Part shown: positions 38,674 through 48,556 of the stretch, piece after piece
How positions within the stretch are numbered: position 1 is the first letter of the stretch
How the letters are laid out: every line of letters starts with the position of its first letter
Virus record (IMG/VR): IMGVR_UViG_3300040816_000831
Reading direction: 5' to 3' (one strand)
Length of the DNA: 64,000 nucleotides
Origin: a virus
Made by a program: the position numbers and the translations under genes
Notes under the pieces: generated by a model
Database searches by the model: none
What the model was told of the DNA's origin: nothing
Seen by the model: the letters and a program-made list of their open reading frames with translations, nothing else

Positions 38674-39282
38674 TTAACCGCGTTTAGGACAATAAGGATT
38701 GTTTTTATTTTCACTAAGAAGTTTATAATTATTAATGACAACAGAACCTACTATTAAATTTATCAGTGTAAGGTCCTCATCAGTATAAATTTCCGCCTTA
38801 GGGTGAAATATAGTGGACATAAAAATAATCTTATGAAGAATTAAACGGTCTTTATGAGGAACGCTTGGTAAAGTTGGATTGCGCTCTTGTATACAAGAAT
38901 ATTTTAGCCCTTTTATTGTTGAATGAACATCTAATGCATTTAGTATATACCATGTAATCCATACCTTTTTATCTCGATTATATTGCTGGTGTGTATATGG
39001 TGACTTTTTCGCTTTTTCCTTTGACCAGGATTCGATCGACTTCAGCGAATTCTCGAGATGTACAGCTTCGATAAGTTTCTGGTCCCAACAACACTCGAAT
39101 CCCATCATAATTTCTTGTTTGGCCTTCGAGTCTAGCACCAAGGTTGACGGCATCTCCAATGACGGAATAGTCAAATCTAGATTCGCTTCCCATGTTTCCG
39201 ACGATGCATGTGCCGGTATTGATACCAATGCCAATATCAATCCTAGGTAAACCTTGGTCTTCAAGTTGTTGTATAAGTTCAT
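38674..39282 (-). CDS. Exported/membrane protein whose N-terminal half overprints the cyclase gene
   Basis: GAGG-6 nt-ATG; signal-peptide-like MNLYNNLKTKVYLGLILALVSIPAHA; C-terminal LNALDVHST..GL.....E.NP resembles DUF5658-type membrane proteins. Confidence 0.6.
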   Translation of the reverse strand: MNLYNNLKTKVYLGLILALVSIPAHASSETWEANLDLTIPSLEMPSTLVLDSKAKQEIMMGFECCWDQKLIEAVHLENSLKSIESWSKEKAKKSPYTHQQYNRDKKVWITWYILNALDVHSTIKGLKYSCIQERNPTLPSVPHKDRLILHKIIFMSTIFHPKAEIYTDEDLTLINLIVGSVVINNYKLLSENKNNPYCPKRG

Positions 39283-40816
39283 CAGCTGCCTCACATATCT
39301 CTATAGATGTTTTAACGGCTTTATCTGCATGGTTACTACATGGTAATGGGGCGTTCCAAAATGCCATAATACAATCACCCATAAATTTATCTATTGTTCC
39401 GCCATTCTTAAGAACAATCTTTGTCATTGTATCTAAATAATTATTTATAAGAATTACTAATCCTTCTGGGTCATCATTGTTTTTATAATGCTCAGATATT
39501 GGAGTGAATCCACATATATCCATAAACATAAAGGTCATTTCTTTTCTTTCACCACCAAGCTTGAGTAATGATGGGTCTTTTTGTAATTGCTTAACTAAGT
39601 CAGGAGACACATATGTACCAAATTGTTTCTTTATTTGTTGTCTTAATTTAAATTGAATATAAAAGTTATTGAAACTCGCTGAGGTGAGTAAAAGTATATA
39701 TATTATTAGAGTAGCTGATAAATCGAGGAGTATAGAAAATTCGTACCAGGCGTAGTAAGAAGCAAGACCAGATAAGAACGCAGAGGCGACGAAGAATACA
39801 GCACCAATCCAAATCGGCAAATAGTAAACCGATAGAACAATTAAAAGAGAGCCCAGAACAATCATCCCCAACTCAACCATAAATGTCCATTGTGGTCTTG
39901 ATATTGGTTTATCTGATATTATTGTCTGTAAAGCGTTTGCTTGTATTTCATGGGGATATAATAAACCAGCTGGTGTAGATACCTGAGGAACAATACCTTT
40001 TGCTGTGACTCCTATAATGGCTGTCTTTCCTTTTAAATCTGGTAAAGGTTGTCCATCATAATCAATCGATTCGAAATGAGTATTCCATTTTAACCATATA
40101 CTTCCTCTTTCATCTGTTGGTATTATAAAAGGTCTTAATATAATACTTTCAATTCCTGTTTCATTTAATTTAATTGTATATGATTTTTTATCTTGCATTG
40201 CACGTACTGTTTCTAATGCAAATGATGGATATAAATCTCCATTAACTTGAGATAATAACGGTATTCTTCTTGTTAAGTTATCTACTTCAGGAGCTCCGTT
40301 TAATAATCCTGCGCCCCAAGCATTCGATTCAAGAGAATCAATATTAGTAATTAAACCTCCATAACGATAAGTTAAATCTAATACATCACCACTATATCCA
40401 AATGTTGCATATCCTACATAAGGAGCTTTTTTTGACCTACCATTAGCATCTGCGTCTTGTGATAATATAATACCATTATCTTTTATCCAAGATGCAAAAA
40501 CTTCATCTCCACCAAACCTATCTGCTTCTGGAAACATAATAGTGAACCCTATCATACCAGCATTCGAGTTTCTTAAATCAGATATCACCGCTGCGTGATT
40601 CTGACGTGGCCAAGGGTATTGTCCATAGGCTTCGAGTGAAGACTCGGATATATTAATCAACACTATATCGTTTGAATGTTCTACTGGAATTGATTGTATA
40701 TATTGGTCGAATATACTGAGTCTAAATTGTTCTAATATCTGTGGGTCTGCAATCCGTATAACACAAAGTGTAATACCTAATAGAATTGTAGTCCATATTG
40801 AAGTTAAATATTTCAT
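38978..40816 (-). CDS. CHASE2-domain class III adenylate cyclase
   Basis: N-terminal TM, CHASE2 (GQYPWPR..A, F.E.DR..GD..FA, D...RRIPL), three TMs, cyclase motifs FMDICGFT, IDKFMGD, DYSVIGDAVNLGARLEG. Confidence 0.93.
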   Translation of the reverse strand: MKYLTSIWTTILLGITLCVIRIADPQILEQFRLSIFDQYIQSIPVEHSNDIVLINISESSLEAYGQYPWPRQNHAAVISDLRNSNAGMIGFTIMFPEADRFGGDEVFASWIKDNGIILSQDADANGRSKKAPYVGYATFGYSGDVLDLTYRYGGLITNIDSLESNAWGAGLLNGAPEVDNLTRRIPLLSQVNGDLYPSFALETVRAMQDKKSYTIKLNETGIESIILRPFIIPTDERGSIWLKWNTHFESIDYDGQPLPDLKGKTAIIGVTAKGIVPQVSTPAGLLYPHEIQANALQTIISDKPISRPQWTFMVELGMIVLGSLLIVLSVYYLPIWIGAVFFVASAFLSGLASYYAWYEFSILLDLSATLIIYILLLTSASFNNFYIQFKLRQQIKKQFGTYVSPDLVKQLQKDPSLLKLGGERKEMTFMFMDICGFTPISEHYKNNDDPEGLVILINNYLDTMTKIVLKNGGTIDKFMGDCIMAFWNAPLPCSNHADKAVKTSIEICEAADELIQQLEDQGLPRIDIGIGINTGTCIVGNMGSESRFDYSVIGDAVNLGARLEGQTRNYDGIRVLLGPETYRSCTSREFAEVDRILVKGKSEKVTIYTPAI

Positions 40817-40828
40817 AAAAGTGTTATA

Positions 40829-41140
40829 CTAAAACTGTACTGAGATACCACATCCACATGCTGATTTTTCAGCTGGATTAATTATTTTGAATTGCTCTTG
40901 TATTCCTTCGACGACGTAATCTAAGGTTGCCTTTTCAAGGTATGGCATGGAGAGGTCATCGATGAGAATGTGGAAGGAACCGTAGTCAAACACATGGTCG
41001 TTACCATTAATTTCGGATTCGTAAGCAAATATATATTCGAACCCAGCACAACCACCGCCAGTAAGACCAATCCTAATTTTATCCCGTTTTGCATTAGTTT
41101 TTGATATAAGTTTTTCAATTGCTGCATTTGTTATTTCCAT
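40829..41140 (-). CDS. iscA: A-type Fe-S carrier IscA/HesB
   Basis: GGGCAGFEY, LDY, F...NP.....CGCG.S. Confidence 0.92.
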   Translation of the reverse strand: MEITNAAIEKLISKTNAKRDKIRIGLTGGGCAGFEYIFAYESEINGNDHVFDYGSFHILIDDLSMPYLEKATLDYVVEGIQEQFKIINPAEKSACGCGISVQF

Positions 41141-41802
41141 TATGATATTGTAAATGTATGGTCTTTATTTTGATAGCTATCTCTTAATGTCCAATCACTA
41201 TTTTCTGATTTTATCCAATCAATATCAAAGAATGATAATTGGCCTTCAGTGTTTCCACCTAAAACAGTATCATATATAAATGTTTCACCATTTATCCAAT
41301 ACATATAATTATTAAAATCTTGTATAGTATCTGTTATATTAAATACATTCTTAACATCGTTTGTTATTTTTTCTTTTGAATACAAATTAAATATTAATTG
41401 ACCACCATCATTTAATAATGTTTTTAATTCTGTAATTGATTTTAAAATATATTCATAACTACAATGTGTAAAAATATTATGAGCAAATATAATATCATAT
41501 TTTGCTCCTATATGAGTAAAGTTTATTTTTTTATTACCTTCTGAATTATAAGATGGATGATATGCATTTAAACAAATAAAATTTTGACTTGGGTATAATC
41601 CTTTTAAGTCTTGTATAAATTCTTCTTGCACATCTACACCGGTGTATGTACAGTTTAAATCATCTGGAAATGATTTTATTAAATTGCCTGTATTACATCC
41701 AACATCTAATAATGTTTTTCCTTCAGCATCTACTTTAAGACAATGTTCATATAAATATTTTTTTCCTTGTGTACTTACTTTAAATCCTTTATCTTTAATC
41801 AT
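41140..41802 (-). CDS. Class I SAM-dependent methyltransferase
   Basis: LLDVGCNTG, YTGVD, YDIIFA..IFTH, L..GG. Confidence 0.85.
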   Translation of the reverse strand: MIKDKGFKVSTQGKKYLYEHCLKVDAEGKTLLDVGCNTGNLIKSFPDDLNCTYTGVDVQEEFIQDLKGLYPSQNFICLNAYHPSYNSEGNKKINFTHIGAKYDIIFAHNIFTHCSYEYILKSITELKTLLNDGGQLIFNLYSKEKITNDVKNVFNITDTIQDFNNYMYWINGETFIYDTVLGGNTEGQLSFFDIDWIKSENSDWTLRDSYQNKDHTFTIS

Positions 41803-42251
41803 TCTGCTTCTCCGTACCAGTTCCACCTTCCATTTTCTGGTGGATTATTATGTCCTATCATTGAATCAGGTTCCCAATTTTCTATAGCTTTTTTAATTGC
41901 TTCTTCTGCTAAAACTGAACAATGTAATTTTATTGGAGGTAATTGAAGAGCATCAGCAATATCTTTATCTTTTATTTGTTTTGCTTCTTCAATAGTTTTA
42001 CCTTTTAACATTTCTACAAACATTGTACTTGATGCAATTGCTGAACCACAGCCATAAGTTTTGAACTTGACATCTTCTATGACATCTCCTTTCATTTTTA
42101 AATCTAATTTCATTACATCACCACAGGCTGGAGCACCAACCATTCCTGTTATAACTGTTTTATCATTAGGGTCAAATCTTCCAACAGAATGTTTAGCTGG
42201 ATTTGCCAATACTGATTCGAACCTATCTACTACTTCTTTACTATATGCCAT
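41799..42251 (-). CDS. iscU: Fe-S scaffold IscU
   Basis: GAPACGDVM, KFKTYGCGSAIASS, LPPIKLHCSVLAE. Confidence 0.95.
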   Translation of the reverse strand: MAYSKEVVDRFESVLANPAKHSVGRFDPNDKTVITGMVGAPACGDVMKLDLKMKGDVIEDVKFKTYGCGSAIASSTMFVEMLKGKTIEEAKQIKDKDIADALQLPPIKLHCSVLAEEAIKKAIENWEPDSMIGHNNPPENGRWNWYGEAE

Positions 42252-42901
42252 TAATTACCTTGTGTTACTGATACTGAACAACCACCAACTGTATTACAAT
42301 TTTGTGTAAGTGAATATGCTTGATTTGTAGTACCTTGCTGTAGTAAATTTAAAGTTGTTTCTTCTGTTCCTTGAAGAACAACCTGTGCGTTATGATTTGC
42401 ATTACCCTTTTGCATGACATTTGCTATTGAACCGTCTGAAGTTCCATAAAAATAAACATGTGCATAATGACTACCAGTTCCTTCTTGCCATAAATCAACT
42501 TCTACATCGGCAACATGAACGTCCATATTAAATGTATGAGTTCCGTTTTGATATACATCAATAGTGTTATCATTATCCCATATATGTCTTCCGTATGTAG
42601 CACCACCACTTTGGTCAACATTTTCTACATTACCGGTACCATCTACATCACCACCCCAGGCTTTACCTGACCCCCAATAAGAAACCCAACCAATATAATT
42701 GTCATTACCTGTTTGATTAAAATTAAAGGTATTATTTGCATGGTCAAATGAAAAATTAATTTCATTACCAAATCCTATTTGAGATATAGTTAAATCTAAA
42801 TTATCACCACCTGAAAGTTGTTCAATGTGAATATGATTATCATCAGTAGGTCCAGCATATAACATTGATGCTAAAAAATATAATGGTAATAACTTATACA
42901 T
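42251..42901 (-). CDS. Curlin-like secreted beta-solenoid protein
   Basis: Signal peptide, then repeated hydrophobic-x-Q-x-G-x-x-N/H strands. Confidence 0.75.
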   Translation of the reverse strand: MYKLLPLYFLASMLYAGPTDDNHIHIEQLSGGDNLDLTISQIGFGNEINFSFDHANNTFNFNQTGNDNYIGWVSYWGSGKAWGGDVDGTGNVENVDQSGGATYGRHIWDNDNTIDVYQNGTHTFNMDVHVADVEVDLWQEGTGSHYAHVYFYGTSDGSIANVMQKGNANHNAQVVLQGTEETTLNLLQQGTTNQAYSLTQNCNTVGGCSVSVTQGN

Positions 42902-43018
42902 TTTTAATGCATTTCTCTGGATGCCAAGGCGCTATCCAGTACTTATATATTATTCTTTTTATTTGCGTAAACATATATTGTCTTTTTTCCAGTTGTGTAA
43001 ACTGAAACTAATAATTTC

Positions 43019-44176
43019 TTAGTTTCCTTGGTTGATGAAGATTTCAATTCCTTCTCCGCTTCCAAATGTTATTATTCCTTGGTAACCTTCCACATTTGTA
43101 TTTATAAATCCGTTACCACCAGATGCTATAGTTATATTTATAACACCATTAACTGTTCTATATAAAATTAAATTACCGTCTTCTTCAAAGATATTATATT
43201 GTGAATCCTTATTTAATCCAAAGTTACCGCCTTTTAATACCCAACCAGCACTTGAATCTCCACCTGCTTGAGCATCATCTAATGTTGCAGTTGTTCTTAC
43301 TAATTCCTCAACTACATCCAAAAGGTCTGGTAAAAAATCTCCAGCTAATGCATCGTAATTTAATCTATCTCTTGCATCGTAATCTTCATCTAAATAATCT
43401 TCTATATCTTTCTCCAATTCATTATATTCAAGGTAATCAATATCAAGTATTCCTTGGTCATCATCTAAATCATTCTGTACTTGTTCTTCAATCGCTTCTT
43501 TTACTTCTTGTGGAGGATTAACAATAAACATATTATCAATCATTGACGGAGTAATACCATTAATTTGTATAGGATTGGTTGGTATTTTATCCAATGATGA
43601 TACCATTGTTGCTTGGTAGGCTTGATTTAAAGTAATTGTACCACCTAAATTTGTTACTGTTATTTCACCTGATGGATTACCATATTGGTCAGGTAATAAA
43701 ACAATTAAGCTTCTACCTAATTCATCAATGGTTGTTGTAAAATCTGTTCCACGAATACCAATTGTGGCTGTAGGCGTTTGTATATCAATGTTTGCTTTAT
43801 TAATTAAACCAAGAGAACCTGAAGCAAATCTTGCTGTTCCCATAGTAAACTTCATTGACATTTTGGATAATGATGGGTCAGGGTCATAATATATTTCGTC
43901 TATTAATACCTCTGTATGTTCTTTTAAATCCAATTGAGCATTATCCAAAAACTCAATTTTCATTTTACCATTTGCTGTTTCTGCAATATCGTTTAGTTCT
44001 ACAGCTGGCATATACGCGCCAGATACTGTAATCTCTTCTTTATCTCTTATAATTTGACCTGAACCGGTCTGTTCAATCACTTCGCCGATGGGGTCGGCTA
44101 AGACCCCACCGATGAATAACAAATTAAGAATCGCTAGATGAATCTTTTTGATTGATTTGAATTGTTGCATTATCAC
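43019..44176 (-). CDS. Exported FecR-domain protein
   Basis: Signal-like N-terminus; ET..G...I.F.D...L.L..HT, I.TPTATIGIRGTDF; acidic C-terminal half. Confidence 0.85.
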   Translation of the reverse strand: MIMQQFKSIKKIHLAILNLLFIGGVLADPIGEVIEQTGSGQIIRDKEEITVSGAYMPAVELNDIAETANGKMKIEFLDNAQLDLKEHTEVLIDEIYYDPDPSLSKMSMKFTMGTARFASGSLGLINKANIDIQTPTATIGIRGTDFTTTIDELGRSLIVLLPDQYGNPSGEITVTNLGGTITLNQAYQATMVSSLDKIPTNPIQINGITPSMIDNMFIVNPPQEVKEAIEEQVQNDLDDDQGILDIDYLEYNELEKDIEDYLDEDYDARDRLNYDALAGDFLPDLLDVVEELVRTTATLDDAQAGGDSSAGWVLKGGNFGLNKDSQYNIFEEDGNLILYRTVNGVINITIASGGNGFINTNVEGYQGIITFGSGEGIEIFINQGN

Positions 44177-44864
44177 TTGTAATATCCAAAGTTATTATTG
44201 CATTTGGTGAAACACATGCAACATCGTTACCTGCACAAGTACCAGATATTTGATTAATATCAATATCAGCACTATCACCATTTAATTCAACGGTCATTTC
44301 ATTAGCACCATCAGATTGTAATGTATTGATGTTATTAGAACTACCGGTTATGTCCCAATTCCATACAACGTCATCACTCTCCCAATCAACATCAAAGATG
44401 TTGTTGCTACCAATGAGTATTAAATCCGCATCCAATCTTTCTGCACTGTAAACATAACCTTGGTCTAAGTCAAAAGTATTACTACTTCCTGTTACGTCAA
44501 AGTTTATGTCTGAACTATCAGCACTTCCGATATATCCAATGTTCCAATCTATTTCGTTTGAATCGCCTGCAAAATCAAGCTTATAAGTTGAGCTATCTGC
44601 TACAACTGGTCCAAATAAAATATTTTGGTTCCCTGTGAAGTCCAAATCAAAGTTTAAGCTGGAACCTGTAATAGACATAGCTGAGCTACTTGATGAAAAA
44701 TCATCTCCGCCTATTTTGTTACCAAACCCTAATTGGTCTATATACAAACTGAGTGTATCACCAGATTGTAATATATTAACTTCGTTATCATCAGTGGCTT
44801 GTGCAAAAACGAATCCAGTCGACACTAATAGTCCAGATAGGACCACACTATATAGTTTATTCAT
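44124..44864 (-). CDS. Curlin-like secreted beta-solenoid protein
   Basis: Signal peptide MNKLYSVVLSGLLVSTGFVFA; repeats such as IDQLGFGN, FDVTGSSN, WDITGSSNN. Confidence 0.75.
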   Translation of the reverse strand: MNKLYSVVLSGLLVSTGFVFAQATDDNEVNILQSGDTLSLYIDQLGFGNKIGGDDFSSSSSAMSITGSSLNFDLDFTGNQNILFGPVVADSSTYKLDFAGDSNEIDWNIGYIGSADSSDINFDVTGSSNTFDLDQGYVYSAERLDADLILIGSNNIFDVDWESDDVVWNWDITGSSNNINTLQSDGANEMTVELNGDSADIDINQISGTCAGNDVACVSPNAIITLDITSDNATIQINQKDSSSDS

Positions 44865-45774
44865 TTTCGTTATACCCCTCGATTTCCCAATAACCACGTC
44901 TGTGGCCTTGGTAGATTAATTCCAGTACTCCAGCCTCAATGGCTGTTCGCACTGCGTAAGTCACCGACTCATTATTTCCAAGTCCGTCTTCAAACTCTAC
45001 TAATTGTGTTCCTTCTTCAATGTATTTAAATACATCGCCTCCAGTACCATAACTAAATACAGTTTTTCGAGTTTGTACATTTAATAATACTTCACCTGTT
45101 AGAACCGAAATGGCTCTCATACTTATTGTGACAACATCTTGACGATATTGTCTACTTACACCAACACCAAGAGTTCGTGCGCCTCGGCCTCCTGATTTAA
45201 TGTCAGTATCATAACCAATAATACCACCTTCAATAATTATTCCTGCGAATAAAAGTGGATTCAATTCTTGATATTTTTCTTGACCTTGCTTTTTAGCAAC
45301 ATCTTGTCTTGCACTTCGAATGATTTGTCGTTCTCTTACTAAATGGTCTATACCATTTCTTTCAACAACACGGAACCATGAATTTTGACCTGCAGTTTTT
45401 AAAGCATCAACTACCATTTCAACTCCACCTTGAGTTACGGCTGTTGAAAAATCTGCAATACCAGGTCTTGCTTTTCTTTGACCTGTTTTGTCTGTGAATT
45501 GATATACTGCAACCACTGGCATTTCTTTTGCTGGTGGTATTTCTAATAATTCAATATAGGAAGGCATTCTTACAACCTCTGGATTTTCTACACAAATATA
45601 TGGCATTGCTTTGGTAAAGATTCTACCAGATGCCTTTGCATAATTCCATACATCGTGGTTATATTCTGGTCCCCACATATTAGGATTACAATTTTGTGGT
45701 AATTCAGACCATTTTGGAACTGCTGCGCAACCTTGTAATAGTAATATTGCAGTTAAAAGATATTTAACCACCAT
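44857..45774 (-). CDS. csgG: Curli secretion channel CsgG (lipoprotein)
   Basis: Lipobox LLQGC; VAVY.F.DKTGQRK, FSTAVTQG, WF.VVER.G...L..ERQIIR, EGGIIGYD, G.GAR.LG.G...QYR.D.VT. Confidence 0.93.
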   Translation of the reverse strand: MVVKYLLTAILLLQGCAAVPKWSELPQNCNPNMWGPEYNHDVWNYAKASGRIFTKAMPYICVENPEVVRMPSYIELLEIPPAKEMPVVAVYQFTDKTGQRKARPGIADFSTAVTQGGVEMVVDALKTAGQNSWFRVVERNGIDHLVRERQIIRSARQDVAKKQGQEKYQELNPLLFAGIIIEGGIIGYDTDIKSGGRGARTLGVGVSRQYRQDVVTISMRAISVLTGEVLLNVQTRKTVFSYGTGGDVFKYIEEGTQLVEFEDGLGNNESVTYAVRTAIEAGVLELIYQGHRRGYWEIEGYNENE

Positions 45775-46306
45775 CACCACCTGTGCCAGTATCAGGGTCT
45801 TGACCAAAATTGCCTGTTCCTACTGGTATTTCTATAACTGTTGTTGTACCTTCAGTATCAACAATTGTCATTTTAATAACATCAGTTCCTTCAGCATTAG
45901 TTATAACTTCCCATGTTATGATACTACCTTCAAGTGCAAATGAACCAAAGTTTGATGCAGTATCATTACTGAACATTGATTCAACTAATTGTTTTGATAA
46001 TTGAGCATAAATTCTACTTTCTAAGTTTCGAATAAACTTTGCAAGTGTTGTGTTTTCAGCTTCTCTTTGAGCGGCTTTTGCAGCAGAATCTAAAGCTTCT
46101 TGGATTGCTTTCTTTCTGCTATGTTCTTGGTTTTCAATAGTAAGATAGTGTGCACCTGTTCCTACACCACTGAATGATGGATTTTTAAATTCGTGCACGA
46201 TTGGAGATGCATTGGTATCTGGCGATACAGCCATAAGAGAAATTATGAATAAACTAGCTAGAGTTATTATTTCTGCTTGTTCTTTTATTTTTGTTTTTCT
46301 GCTCAT
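45764..46306 (-). CDS. csgF: Curli assembly protein CsgF
   Basis: Signal peptide then V.EFKNPSFSG......L...Q; F..NLESRIYAQLS.QL; adjacent to csgG. Confidence 0.85.
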   Translation of the reverse strand: MSRKTKIKEQAEIITLASLFIISLMAVSPDTNASPIVHEFKNPSFSGVGTGAHYLTIENQEHSRKKAIQEALDSAAKAAQREAENTTLAKFIRNLESRIYAQLSKQLVESMFSNDTASNFGSFALEGSIITWEVITNAEGTDVIKMTIVDTEGTTTVIEIPVGTGNFGQDPDTGTGGDGG

Positions 46307-46544
46307 TTTCTTTATATTCCAATACTGTATCAACTTTTTGTTGAAGTCTGATTAAATCCTGGTCAAGCATTCTCATTTGGTCAATTACTTTTATTAACTG
46401 GAAATGCATTTTTTCTATTGCTGGGTCTATATGTTCATTTATAAAACTATAAACAAAATATACAAAATACCCCAATCCTATTACCATAACTGTTGGAAAA
46501 CCATAATCAGCTACCAACTGAGCCACTGTACCCATTTCTTCCAT
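46254..46544 (-). CDS. Small N-terminal-TM coiled-coil protein (holin/YvrJ-like)
   Basis: LVADYGFPTVMVIGLGYFVYFV then heptads. Confidence 0.7.
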   Translation of the reverse strand: MEEMGTVAQLVADYGFPTVMVIGLGYFVYFVYSFINEHIDPAIEKMHFQLIKVIDQMRMLDQDLIRLQQKVDTVLEYKENEQKNKNKRTSRNNNSS

Positions 46545-46545
46545 A

Positions 46546-46842
46546 TTAATCTCTTCTTACATCAAGCTTGCCGTCTTCAATGAAATTTTCTGCTCTTGCA
46601 ATTCTTTCAATGTCAGGTCTTAATTCTAATGCACTACTTACTAATAAATCTATTTTTATCATTTCGTTACTCATTGTTCGTGCTCTATTCTCTAGAGATT
46701 CACAAAACATAGTAAGTGTGCTTATATCATCAACTATTCCTTCAAAGATTTGTTTTATAATGATGAATATAAAATATCCCATTGCTAAAGCTCCTGCAAT
46801 AGGTAGCCCCAAATCTTGTAAAATAACTAATGCTTCTTCCAT
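46546..46842 (-). CDS. Small N-terminal-TM coiled-coil protein, paralogue of its neighbour
   Basis: ILQDLGLPIAGALAMGYFIFII then heptads. Confidence 0.7.
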   Translation of the reverse strand: MEEALVILQDLGLPIAGALAMGYFIFIIIKQIFEGIVDDISTLTMFCESLENRARTMSNEMIKIDLLVSSALELRPDIERIARAENFIEDGKLDVRRD

Positions 46843-46843
46843 C

Positions 46844-47095
46844 TTACCAGCTAGAAGCTACTTTAACTGCTAGCGATGTTGCTGCTCCTGTAAGAGTATC
46901 TGTAGATGTTTTTTTAACTAATTCAACTGAATTAGCTGTCATTGTAAATGTACCAATTGTAGTACCACCAGCATTTTTTAATGTAATAAGCTGTACACTT
47001 GCTGAATTATTTACAATTCTCACAAGAGTAGCAAATCCAAGATTAGTTGCTGAAGCTAAATTTGCTTCGGTACCTTTTAATTTGACTGCTGCCAT
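46844..47095 (-). CDS. Small late beta-rich protein, probably virion-associated
   Basis: 83 aa, GAGGA RBS, late promoter upstream. Confidence 0.7.
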   Translation of the reverse strand: MAAVKLKGTEANLASATNLGFATLVRIVNNSASVQLITLKNAGGTTIGTFTMTANSVELVKKTSTDTLTGAATSLAVKVASSW

Positions 47096-47130
47096 TATTA
47101 TATCCTCTAATTATAATTATTATATACAGT

Positions 47131-47138
47131 TATTTATA
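47131..47138 (-). promoter_or_regulatory. Late promoter heading the curli/cyclase operon
   Basis: TATAAATA just downstream of a terminator. Confidence 0.7.
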
Positions 47139-47159: not shown

Positions 47160-47190
47160 AAAAAAAGGGAGCAATGAGCTCCCTTCTTTT
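47160..47190. terminator. Intrinsic terminator, possibly bidirectional
   Basis: AAGGGAGC-aatga-GCTCCCTT flanked by A and T runs. Confidence 0.85.
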
Positions 47191-47200
47191 TAAAAACAAT

Positions 47201-47443
47201 CTACTTTTTAGCAGCTGTTTTCTTTGGTCTACCTTTTTTAGCCGGTGCTTTTTTAGCTACTGGCTTTTTAGCGGCAGGTTTTTTTCTTGGCTTATGCTTT
47301 GGTGTCTTACCATCTACATAAGCTTCATTTACTTTAGGTGTTGATTTATCATCAGCAACATAATGTCCCTTAGAATTTCTAGCTCTTACGCCAGAAGCTT
47401 CAGGTTCAGTATTATCAAAAAGTCTTTTCAACCAATTAAACAT
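47201..47443 (-). CDS. Small protein with Lys/Ala/Pro-rich histone-like tail
   Basis: RARNSKG.YVADD.STP.VNEAY motif, KKPAAKK repeats; late promoter at 47464-47471. Confidence 0.75.
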   Translation of the reverse strand: MFNWLKRLFDNTEPEASGVRARNSKGHYVADDKSTPKVNEAYVDGKTPKHKPRKKPAAKKPVAKKAPAKKGRPKKTAAKK

Positions 47444-47453
47444 ATTTCCTCCA

Positions 47454-47636
47454 TTATTTTATATATTTATAATTAATAAACTCTTCCCAACGGAAGTAGT
47501 CTTTTCTCTCATGACACCAAAACCAACCTTTATTAGCCTTTATATCTCCTCGAGTCTTTTCATTAGCCTCTCGGCTCTGTTTGTTACTTGCTTGTACCAT
47601 CTTGAATCTCTGCCCTCTTTTGCAGCTTCTTTCCAA
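47454..47636 (-). CDS. Small protein overlapping the lysozyme 3' end
   Basis: C-terminal KGWFWCHERKDYFRWEEF fills the gap; start uncertain. Confidence 0.45.
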   Translation of the reverse strand: MERSCKRGQRFKMVQASNKQSREANEKTRGDIKANKGWFWCHERKDYFRWEEFINYKYIK

Positions 47637-48556
47637 TCACCACATTGCAGCGCTGCATTGTGTTTATTAAATTTACTTAAGCGCGTAAGTCCCATATTAA
47701 ACATCATATTTGCTACGATTTGTTTTACCTCTTCAGGATAACCGTCCCAACCATCATGTAATTTTTTACAATCATGTATTACATTTTGTAAATCTTGTAA
47801 AAAACATTCGTTAACTCTATTCTCTGAGACTGTAGTACCCACCGGTAACCCATGTTCTGAGTCTGTGTCCAAGATGAGATGGCCAATACCGAATGTAGGA
47901 TAACCAAGATGGTCATTATAAATTTCATATACCACTCCTTCATCTATTTTTAACTGTTCTTTTAATTTATCTGAATCCATATTTTCTTTCCTCATTTCTT
48001 GCAAAAATTCTTTTTGCATATTATCTCTGGTAATAATATCTTTATCCTTACCTGGTATATTATATATATCCGGATTTTTTATATTAAATACTAATTTTAT
48101 AAAATCTTTTATTTCTATTGGATAGTGTAAATTTAATTTACCATATCTCCATTTATATTTATTATTAACACCTAGTAATTTAAATTCCCAAAAATAATCA
48201 TTTATTTTACGAGGTCTTTCTCTATAAATTCTATTAGATGGATTCTGTTCAAGTTTATATTTTTCAATATTACTTAAATTCATATCACCAGTTCTATTAT
48301 ATTCTTCTATTCCAGCAAATACTTTTGTATCTTTAAAAACTTGTATATCAATAGTCATACATTTTCCTACACAATATTCTTTAAAGTCTTTAACTCTTTT
48401 GCCTAAGCTATTTGTAGGTTCACCAATTAAAATAATATCAATATCTTTTGTTGCGTTAAATGGAAAATTGCTCCATAAATATATCTCGCAATCATTAAAT
48501 ACTTCTATTAAATTATAGTCTTTGACACATTGTATAAAGTTATCAATTTTTCCCAT
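47540..48556 (-). CDS. GH24 T4-type lysozyme (from ATG 47980) in frame with an upstream nucleotidyltransferase-like domain
   Basis: LKIDEGVVYEIYNDHLGYPTFGIGHL (E-D-T triad), NMMFNMG, DSRWYKQV.NRA.RL; N-terminal IYLW....T.DIDIIL..IDI. Confidence 0.88.
   Translation of the reverse strand: MGKIDNFIQCVKDYNLIEVFNDCEIYLWSNFPFNATKDIDIILIGEPTNSLGKRVKDFKEYCVGKCMTIDIQVFKDTKVFAGIEEYNRTGDMNLSNIEKYKLEQNPSNRIYRERPRKINDYFWEFKLLGVNNKYKWRYGKLNLHYPIEIKDFIKLVFNIKNPDIYNIPGKDKDIITRDNMQKEFLQEMRKENMDSDKLKEQLKIDEGVVYEIYNDHLGYPTFGIGHLILDTDSEHGLPVGTTVSENRVNECFLQDLQNVIHDCKKLHDGWDGYPEEVKQIVANMMFNMGLTRLSKFNKHNAALQCGDWKEAAKEGRDSRWYKQVTNRAERLMKRLEEI

Follow-up and report, generated by a model that had tools for sequence, protein, structure and literature searches.

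Introduction

SAR11 and OM43 bacteria, which rank among the most abundant in the sea, are infected by phages that can carry genes for a curli, or type VIII, secretion system (T8SS). The whole set, in the order HK-CsgF-CsgG-CsgA/B-FecR-CsgA/B-AC (HK, histidine kinase; AC, adenylate cyclase), was reported in podo- and myo-pelagiphages by Wittmers et al. 2022 (PMC9599517). In that work FecR and AC were termed putatively regulatory, and the small upstream proteins were labelled histidine kinases. The module was found at every ocean station surveyed, with expression in metatranscriptomes. The curli region was also described by Zaragoza-Solas 2020 (PMC7029224) and Buchholz 2022 (PMC9004378); neither text mentions the cyclase or FecR. 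For phage Melnitz, Buchholz et al. proposed that the pore acts in lysis timing, in line with a secretin/pinholin idea. According to the literature, the hosts have no curli genes of their own. The function of the module is an open question across these three papers. Here, we describe a module of this type, with its secretion genes, FecR-domain protein and adenylate cyclase, in IMG/VR virus record IMGVR_UViG_3300040816_000831, from a marine T4-like phage. The whole stretch analysed, 64,000 nucleotides, is called the window.

Two bacterial systems have related parts. In S. meliloti, NsrA and the CHASE2 cyclases CyaK, CyaD1 and CyaD2 convert an extracellular protein signal into cyclic AMP (cAMP). 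The signal is free ribosomal protein uL2, which is also present in bacterial lysates (PMC7529298, PMC13001267). A secreted FecR-domain protein, SMc02177, is a target of Clr and was dispensable for signal perception in the assay used (PMC7529298, PMC13001267, PMC5498481). In Burkholderia and Pseudomonas, one operon encodes a response regulator, a LysM/FecR protein, a CHASE2 histidine kinase and a DUF4136 protein, in that order (PMC5192318).

A preliminary description of the window, made from its sequence, proposed that the secretion kit, FecR protein and cyclase could form a signalling unit across the cell envelope that was not known to have been characterised. The gene cluster is not new, since the set, with FecR and the cyclase, is already in Wittmers et al. 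(PMC9599517). Hence, the window adds one more member, which carries an Isc/methyltransferase insert. The signalling proposal stands in part. Inheritance as one unit, extracytoplasmic topology and a link between FecR and CHASE2 all hold; the membership of IscU, a methyltransferase and IscA, and the novelty of the cluster, do not. The reading that we favour, tentatively and with confidence just short of even, is a single late-expressed sensor that spans the envelope, makes cAMP, and probably feeds late-stage or lysis control. Note that the direction of signalling, the contacts between parts, the cAMP and the output are what we infer.

Results

Inheritance of the module in two phage lineages

The core genes of the module in the window are as follows.

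46546-46842, minus strand: TMa, 98 amino acids (aa), core member with an N-terminal transmembrane (TM) helix, a long helix and a charged C-terminus (phrog_18771)
46254-46544, minus strand: TMb, 96 aa, core member and paralogue of TMa by alignment (phrog_18771)
45764-46333, likely ATG at 46306, minus strand: CsgF homologue with a signal peptide (Pfam CsgF, 4e-15, over the cut-off; phrog_35372)
44857-45807, minus strand: CsgG homologue, outer-membrane lipoprotein channel (Pfam CsgG, 1e-50; lipobox L-Q-G-C)
44124-44864, minus strand: curlin-like protein 1 (Cur1), with a signal peptide and about 8-9 G-x-x-N/Q-x-G repeats
43019-44176, minus strand: secreted FecR-domain protein (Pfam FecR, E 1e-7, over the curated cut-off; phrog_37870)
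42251-42901, minus strand: curlin-like protein 2 (Cur2), with a signal peptide and repeated Q-x-G-x-x-N/H units
38978-40816, minus strand: CHASE2 receptor class III adenylate cyclase, 612 aa (Pfam CHASE2 and Guanylate_cyc)

The whole run is on the minus strand and its genes abut or overlap. Both the genes and the late promoter motif, TATAAATA, are at the positions given in the preliminary description, which had read them as one co-oriented run. Judged by signal peptide or topology, every module product is extracytoplasmic, except for the catalytic domain of the cyclase.

IMG/VR contigs were surveyed using either CsgG or the cyclase as the anchor, and a few contigs were counted twice. For CsgG-anchored myophage loci, the cyclase was counted only where at least 7.5 kb of downstream sequence was available. 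The conserved core order is TM-TM-CsgF-CsgG-curlin-FecR-curlin-cyclase. Given enough flank, CsgG-anchored myophage loci always contained FecR (76/76) and the cyclase (55/55). Similarly, cyclase-anchored loci with enough upstream sequence always contained CsgG and FecR (55/55). Phages HTVC008M and Melnitz have the same order, without Isc or methyltransferase genes, and their cyclases are 44% and 36% identical, respectively, to that of the window. A megablast search of GenBank phages with the module gave no match; relatives there are found at the protein level only.

A second lineage, with non-T4 head genes, has the order TM-CsgF-CsgG-Cur1-FecR-(Cur2)-cyclase, where Cur2 is optional, at 32-50% identity. 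Here, all 53 CsgG-anchored loci contained FecR, and 23 of 27 contained the cyclase. The FecR and cyclase genes are directly adjacent in one contig (L125); in the window, Cur2 and the insert lie between them. Identity to the window differs from gene to gene. For example, the values for cyclase and FecR are 67% and 43% in L085, and 47% and 59% in L014. Such discordance suggests that the module has recombined internally while the set stayed complete. The counts bear out the association that had been proposed from the window. We conclude that they support T8SS, FecR and CHASE2 cyclase genes behaving as one inherited unit in two phage lineages.

The insert, assigned using Pfam, consists of three genes.

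41799-42251, minus strand: IscU (NifU_N)
41140-41826, minus strand: S-adenosylmethionine (SAM) methyltransferase
40829-41140, minus strand: IscA-like protein (Fe-S_biosyn)

The presence of these genes had been noted correctly. Conversely, their place in the operon unit was not upheld, because in relatives they are mobile or absent. In some loci they separate Cur2 from the cyclase, in others they precede TMa, and in others again they are missing (L010, L013, L022, L027 and others). Among the loci seen, only the window has the methyltransferase between IscU and IscA. These three genes are floating inserts, not members of the unit.

Some module-bearing phage contigs (L120-L125) had been binned in metagenome-assembled genomes labelled Sphingobacteriales, Rhodobacterales, Planctomycetaceae and Parvibaculum. 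They are probable binning contaminants, and could mislead inference of host or origin.

The FecR-domain protein

The FecR domain that had been read from the sequence is confirmed by the Pfam match and by a PupR-type fold. The protein consists of a signal peptide, a FecR/PupR-type head (residues ~27-221), an acidic linker of ~100 aa and a C-terminal beta domain (~328-382). In the AlphaFold2 (AF2) model the head has pLDDT ~85 (residues ~30-200), the linker has very low confidence and the beta domain modest confidence. The head matches the C-terminal cell-surface-signalling domain of PupR (6ovk) with Z 15.2 and a root-mean-square deviation of 2.6 over 139 aligned residues. It also matches 4m0n, the periplasmic domain of a Bacteroidetes anti-sigma protein, with Z 13.0. 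A further match, between the first half of the head and a 'cell surface anchoring domain' (5ix9), was too weak to use (Z 6.5). There is no anti-sigma domain and no membrane anchor in the FecR protein; a cleavable-looking signal peptide alone precedes the head. Pfam detected no sigma factor gene among the module genes. Note that the protein ends I-N-Q-G-N, and Cur2 ends T-Q-G-N. A curlin-like tail on the FecR protein was rejected, since hhalign of the FecR and Cur2 families gave 0.4%.

The CHASE2 cyclase

The CHASE2 match covers residues 17-326 of the cyclase (Pfam, 1e-39). Hydrophobic segments are at ~4-28 (TM1) and at 309-382, a block which we read as ~3 helices, and the cyclase domain (425-606) comes next. 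By this hydropathy pattern, of one helix, CHASE2, hydrophobic block and catalytic domain, CHASE2 is periplasmic and the enzyme cytoplasmic. The publications on the cluster do not name CHASE2. Hence, the CHASE2 identity of the phage cyclase is new here.

Adenine is specified by Lys and Asp in class IIIa cyclases, and by Lys and Thr in class IIIb. The closest solved relatives of the phage enzyme are adenylate cyclases, namely P. aeruginosa CyaB (3r5g, 5e-34), CyaC-type enzymes and photoactivated cyclases (bPAC). When aligned to CyaB, the phage protein has the metal-binding residues D433 and D481, K477, and the transition-state residues N558 and R562. The second specificity position is Ser551, and is Thr in CyaB. 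The preliminary description was right about the metal Asp pair, the Lys and the Asn/Arg residues. Its 'Lys/Asp pair' was inexact, because Ser551 replaces the Asp. All of the catalytic motifs, Ser included, are kept in both viral lineages, as judged by a motif check of ~180 viral homologues. These residues point to a class IIIb-like adenylate cyclase, with cAMP as the presumed product.

FecR and CHASE2 genes in bacteria

The initial search with the FecR protein returned near-identical viral proteins only, and no bacterial context. The nearest cellular relatives of the protein share 28-34% identity. One is from Nitrospira (L129), where the gene order is TPR, TPR, FecR, CHASE2 cyclase. Another, in a gammaproteobacterial single amplified genome (L131), is beside a CHASE2 cyclase, a TPR protein and a subtilase. 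In L126, L128 and L130, the FecR relatives are beside TPR, or TPR and Slam-like, proteins.

CHASE2 was present in 88 of 201 sampled alphaproteobacterial genomes. For 40 of the 88, we compared ~13 kb around the best CHASE2 gene with 20 control regions from the same genomes. The CHASE2 protein had a cyclase output domain in 38/40 regions. A FecR-domain open reading frame (ORF) was found in 15/40 CHASE2 regions and 0/20 controls (Fisher p = 0.001). Type I secretion ABC or HlyD genes were present in 17/40 regions, and a TPR protein, of the family found upstream of FecR, in 7/40. Neither CsgG nor CsgF was found in any of the 40 bacterial CHASE2 regions. The position of the FecR gene, beside the CHASE2 receptor gene, was checked in L129, L268, L272, L278 and others. 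The preliminary description stated that, in bacteria, CHASE2 cyclases often cluster with FecR-domain and outer-membrane proteins; for FecR, this agrees with the counts. The enrichment of FecR beside alphaproteobacterial CHASE2 cyclases is new here.

In four of the contigs, FecR heads a giant surface protein with Ig/cadherin domains (L253:72-2891, L260:1651-5745, L270:7179-13022 and L276:7471-10302). Each gene is within ~3 kb of a CHASE2 adenylate cyclase gene. RTX repeats are present in the FecR-headed proteins of L253 and L260; type I secretion genes are present in L253 (HlyD) and L270 (ABC and HlyD), in the latter as neighbours of the FecR-headed gene. In the literature searched, we found no description of this neighbourhood of FecR-headed Ig/cadherin proteins and CHASE2 cyclases. 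We conclude that bacterial CHASE2 cyclases recurrently have two kinds of neighbour: a FecR domain, and export genes for a surface protein rich in repeats. The phage shows the same triad, such that type VIII secretion and curlins take the export role.

The curli components

The csgF, csgG and two curlin-like genes recognised in the window were all confirmed, by Pfam or by curlin profile matches. The CsgG homologue aligns with E. coli CsgG across residues 79-313 (4e-46). The CsgF homologue keeps the stretch F-K-N-P-S-F-S-G near its mature N-terminus; a single-sequence search of the PDB with this protein gave no match. Taken singly, Cur1 and Cur2 score under the Pfam cut-off. The two are homologous to each other (hhalign 99.4%), and the Cur2 family profile matches both 8c50, a solved curlin-repeat protein (1e-11), and CsgA of E. 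coli (8enq, 1.5e-6). In the Cur1 family, 13/19 members have a Curlin_rpt match. The AF2 model of Cur1 is all-beta (pTM 0.75). Foldseek searches with this model gave weak beta-helix matches, none significant, so the curlin assignment rests on sequence profiles. By those profiles, Cur1 and Cur2 are real curlin relatives.

No csgE had been recognised in the window. Consistent with this, five related phage genomes (HTVC008M, Melnitz and three large related contigs) gave no match to CsgE (PF10627), with a positive E. coli control; other ORFs of the window were only partly scanned.

Lysis genes and small membrane proteins

A gene with a lysozyme domain is ~700 bp upstream of TMa.

47540-48556, minus strand: lysozyme-domain protein

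Of 31 myophage loci with sufficient flank, 26 have a gene of this kind no more than 2.5 kb from a module edge. In L125, an endolysin is encoded two genes past the cyclase. In two cyclase-less loci (L304:5377-6515 and L335:2750-4264), FecR is followed directly by overlapping Rz- and Rz1-like spanin genes and an endolysin gene. Because FecR runs directly into these genes, the secretion module is inside a lysis cassette in L304 and L335. The position of the module in or beside the lysis cassette is a new observation here, and gives indirect support to lysis timing as the output.

The lysozyme domain of the window protein (residues 206-334) is fused to an N-terminal part of ~200 aa that has no assignment. 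The second-lineage homologue of this domain is a stand-alone endolysin of ~130-190 aa.

TMa and TMb each have one N-terminal hydrophobic helix, according to hydropathy. They had been described as holin-like paralogues. While the paralogy is clear, from shared membership of phrog_18771, no holin family was matched in Pfam, PHROGs or the protein Atlas. Nor was any Pfam family, HisKA or HATPase found in a scan of 18 family members (78-116 aa, E up to 0.1). Hence, the published histidine kinase label is not supported. An automatic cluster name, 'MotA/TolQ/ExbB', was also rejected, as it lacks Pfam support. Their position supports TMa and TMb as holin candidates. In L304, further small membrane proteins encoded upstream are alternative candidates.

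Transcription and flanking sites

Upstream of TMa are three further features.

47160-47190 (approximate): hairpin and T-run, terminator of the upstream gene, from the terminator prediction list
47131-47138, minus strand: TATAAATA, T4-type late promoter motif ~35 nucleotides (nt) ahead of the first gene; the motif was read from the sequence and the promoter is predicted
46844-47095, minus strand: 83-aa protein (phrog_19805), first gene behind the late promoter and outside the conserved core

The order is therefore hairpin and T-run, TATAAATA, ribosome site and 83-aa gene. Across the whole window, TATAAATA shows no enrichment (22 observed, 16 expected). From the 47131-47138 promoter down to 38674, no terminator-like site was predicted on the minus strand. 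A strong sigma-70-like site is directly past the end of the operon (38618-38590). In favour of expression, RNA-library contigs from three studies cover module genes, and single contigs span Cur2-FecR-Cur1 into CsgG. The 83-aa protein was not present in HTVC008M, Melnitz or the second phage lineage.

Between the lysozyme-domain gene and the module is a gene for a basic, Lys/Ala-rich protein of 80 aa (47201-47443, minus strand). It has its own TATAAATA (47464-47471) and a hairpin terminator 3' of the gene. This 80-aa protein had no family match. Two more copies of TATAAATA are at 43099-43142 on the minus strand, within the 3' end of the FecR gene and ~200 nt ahead of Cur2. They precede the only sizeable intergenic gap in the module (42902-43018), and may be an internal late promoter.

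An overprinted gene

The last gene of the run starts inside the catalytic domain of the cyclase.

38674-39294, likely ATG at 39282, minus strand: overprinted gene

Its first ~100 codons overlap the 3' end of the cyclase in the +1 frame, and the N-terminus that they specify resembles a signal peptide. The remainder of the product is hydrophobic, with a match to Pfam DUF5658 that is under the cut-off (8.5e-4). This frame is open in most relatives. In the last 315 nt of 80 distinct cyclase genes, the +1 frame has a mean of 1.4 stops, and has none in 37 of the genes. For comparison, there are 9-11 stops in all other 315-nt cyclase windows, and in the +2 frame. Because the +1 frame is depleted of stops, we consider the ORF to be supported as a real overlapping gene that would encode a small membrane protein. 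This statistical support for the gene is new here. The 'exported protein' previously placed at the end of the operon therefore stands as an ORF with a signal-peptide-like start, with the addition that it overlaps the cyclase by ~100 codons.

A copy of TATAAATA is at 39442-39449, ~160 nt ahead of the overprinted ATG. In some relatives, the DUF5658-like part of the overprinted protein has a paralogue encoded by a separate small gene, directly upstream of the cyclase (L006/L064:7436-7666 and L112:1064-1285).

Discussion

A proposed sensor and its alternatives

In the sensor that we propose, the unit would be TMa, TMb, CsgF, CsgG, Cur1, the FecR protein, Cur2 and the CHASE2 cyclase, with the overprinted membrane protein added in this lineage. 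The phage would install this device late, in a host without curli genes. CsgG and CsgF would form an outer-membrane channel. The two curlin homologues would be the substrates of the channel, and would build a beta-solenoid structure at the surface. The FecR protein, in or spanning from the periplasm, would connect the cyclase in the inner membrane, by way of its periplasmic CHASE2 domain, with the channel or fibre. Synthesis of cAMP in the cytoplasm would then depend on the envelope or surface state. The signal would most likely be used to control the late programme or lysis timing, because the module is in or beside lysis genes in both lineages.

A more detailed version can be drawn, and we think it decidedly doubtful. 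The module would be a type VIII version of a widespread bacterial surface-sensing design. Spanning the outer membrane, the FecR protein would keep its head in the periplasm at CHASE2, thread its acidic linker through CsgG, and place its beta domain outside, on the curlin fibre. Surface events, such as a second phage, contact, or debris from a lysed neighbour, would lead to cAMP that sets the lysis time. This would resemble lysis inhibition, and be unrelated to the T4 RI/T system.

Several points weigh against a single sensing device. The cyclase is missing from 4/27 second-lineage loci, which keep the T8SS and FecR. Since FecR is never dispensed with, it is tied first to the secretion kit; it has a role for which no phage cyclase is needed, and the cyclase is an add-on in that lineage. 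In rank correlations of identity to the window, a crude measure, FecR follows CsgG (0.84) better than it follows the cyclase (0.52). Much of the co-occurrence is explained by common descent, as two lineages account for most of the loci. Since CsgG and CsgF were in 0/40 bacterial CHASE2 regions, the T8SS link is phage-specific and has no cellular precedent. The RNA evidence consists of contigs, in which DNA carry-over is possible and neither strand nor level can be judged. No lysozyme gene was detected beside the module in HTVC008M or Melnitz. Finally, no protein that binds cyclic nucleotide monophosphates (cNMPs) is encoded in the five related phage genomes.

The main alternative is two functions that travel together. 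The T8SS and FecR would make fibres or an open pore, for aggregation or 'sibling capture', superinfection exclusion, or uptake. The cyclase would separately raise host cAMP and reprogramme metabolism. The FecR protein would not be a relay, and would replace CsgE as an adaptor or plug for CsgG. This fits the occurrence of FecR in all T8SS loci (76/76 and 53/53), the four loci that lack the cyclase, the closeness of FecR to CsgG by the crude identity measure, and the failure to detect CsgE in five related phage genomes. Similarly, the unrelated IscU, methyltransferase and IscA genes can separate Cur2 from the cyclase, and both fibre and uptake ideas have been published (PMC7029224, PMC9599517). 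Conversely, FecR is enriched beside bacterial CHASE2 cyclases where CsgG is absent (15/40, against 0/20 controls), which argues that the FecR-CHASE2 pairing predates, and outlives, the link to the T8SS. Furthermore, the cyclase is kept at 55/55 myophage loci, and 85% of those in the second lineage, always at the same end of the module. Melnitz-infected cells showed no clumping (PMC9004378). On balance, we regard two separate functions as unlikely, but as a serious contender.

In Enterobacteria, curli are controlled by cAMP-CRP and CsgD. Signalling could thus run inside-out, as in the published reading, with the cyclase and FecR regulating production or secretion of viral curli, and cAMP acting on T8SS expression or gating. 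Wittmers et al. (PMC9599517) did term FecR and AC putatively regulatory, and the genes appear to form a single late transcription unit, with no internal minus-strand terminator predicted. However, such co-transcription from a late promoter leaves little room for transcriptional feedback on the operon. The five related phage genomes encode no cNMP-binding regulator, and nothing CsgD-like was noticed, although no search was aimed at CsgD. CHASE2 is an extracytoplasmic sensor domain, so input should come from outside, and the secreted FecR protein has no DNA-binding or anti-sigma part. Inside-out control is, in our view, improbable.

We see a lysis device without a sensor as more improbable still. 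TMa and TMb would be holin and antiholin, CsgG and CsgF would be repurposed as an outer-membrane pore that breaches the envelope, and the cyclase would be a mere modulator. In favour of this, genes for small membrane proteins are on one side of the module and spanin/endolysin genes on the other; TMa and TMb each combine small size with a single helix and a charged C-terminal end; and a role of this kind has been proposed (PMC9004378). Yet TMa and TMb match no holin family, and L304 encodes, further upstream, other small membrane proteins that could be the holin. L304 and L335 already have Rz/Rz1 spanins to deal with the outer membrane. Two conserved curlin homologues and the FecR protein would be left without a role.

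Lastly, that the cyclase counters a cyclic-nucleotide defence of the host, by making some other nucleotide than cAMP or by depleting ATP, with the extracytoplasmic partners unrelated, could be read from the Ser in place of the usual Asp or Thr and from the lack of a cAMP receiver in the five related phage genomes, but is very improbable given the Lys at the first specificity position, solved relatives (CyaB, CyaC-type, bPAC) that are all adenylate cyclases, the conservative nature of Ser as a stand-in for the class IIIb Thr, and the CHASE2 sensor and FecR linkage, which suit a regulated receptor and not a constitutive enzyme.

If the envelope-spanning sensor is correct, the phage encodes a receptor that reads the cell surface. 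It would also offer a first way into the question of what bacteria sense with their CHASE2/FecR systems, which are common and almost unstudied. If not, the window adds a further member to a published auxiliary gene cluster. In either case, the view that the phage has borrowed a bacterial sensor pair, FecR and the CHASE2 cyclase, together with the lysis-cassette position, makes the question of function concretely testable.

Comparison with known systems

The phage module shares with the enterobacterial curli system (CsgBAC/CsgDEFG) homologues of CsgG and CsgF, along with a pair of curlin-repeat proteins that bear signal peptides. Unlike that system, it has no detected CsgE (five related genomes), and the FecR and cyclase genes are inside the operon. 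No CsgD-type regulator was noticed in the module, a comparison for which no search aimed at CsgD was made.

In FecA-FecR-FecI and PupB-PupR signalling, the periplasmic part binds an outer-membrane transducer. The phage periplasmic head shares the fold of the PupR domain that does so (Z 15.2). However, the phage module has no anti-sigma domain, membrane helix, extracytoplasmic function (ECF) sigma factor or TonB-dependent transducer. By analogy, the phage FecR protein may work like such a relay, and is not a member of the FecR/PupR anti-sigma class.

The Burkholderia/Pseudomonas operon similarly has a signal-peptide FecR protein beside a CHASE2 sensor, with the same layout of 1+3 helices. It differs in its histidine kinase output, in the LysM on the FecR protein, and in having no secretion system. 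In the alphaproteobacterial CHASE2 neighbourhoods (L249-L287), as in the phage, a CHASE2 cyclase is beside a FecR protein and export functions for a repeat protein. Here, export is type I (ABC/HlyD) or TPR/Slam-like, never type VIII, and FecR is sometimes fused to the exported protein.

The S. meliloti NsrA-CyaK/CyaD-Clr system also has inner-membrane CHASE2 cyclases that require an outer-membrane partner, and a secreted FecR protein in the regulon. The partner is different: NsrA is a large beta-barrel, whereas the phage has CsgG/CsgF with curlins. Of the two systems, that of S. meliloti is the one with a known cAMP receiver, Clr.

The closest counterpart is the viral T8SS region of pelagiphages (HTVC008M, KC465899; Melnitz, MZ577097). 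The pelagiphage papers name neither the CHASE2 domain, the bacterial FecR-CHASE2 link, nor the overprinted gene. The window shares the gene set and order of this region, and differs by having IscU, the methyltransferase and IscA inserted ahead of the cyclase.

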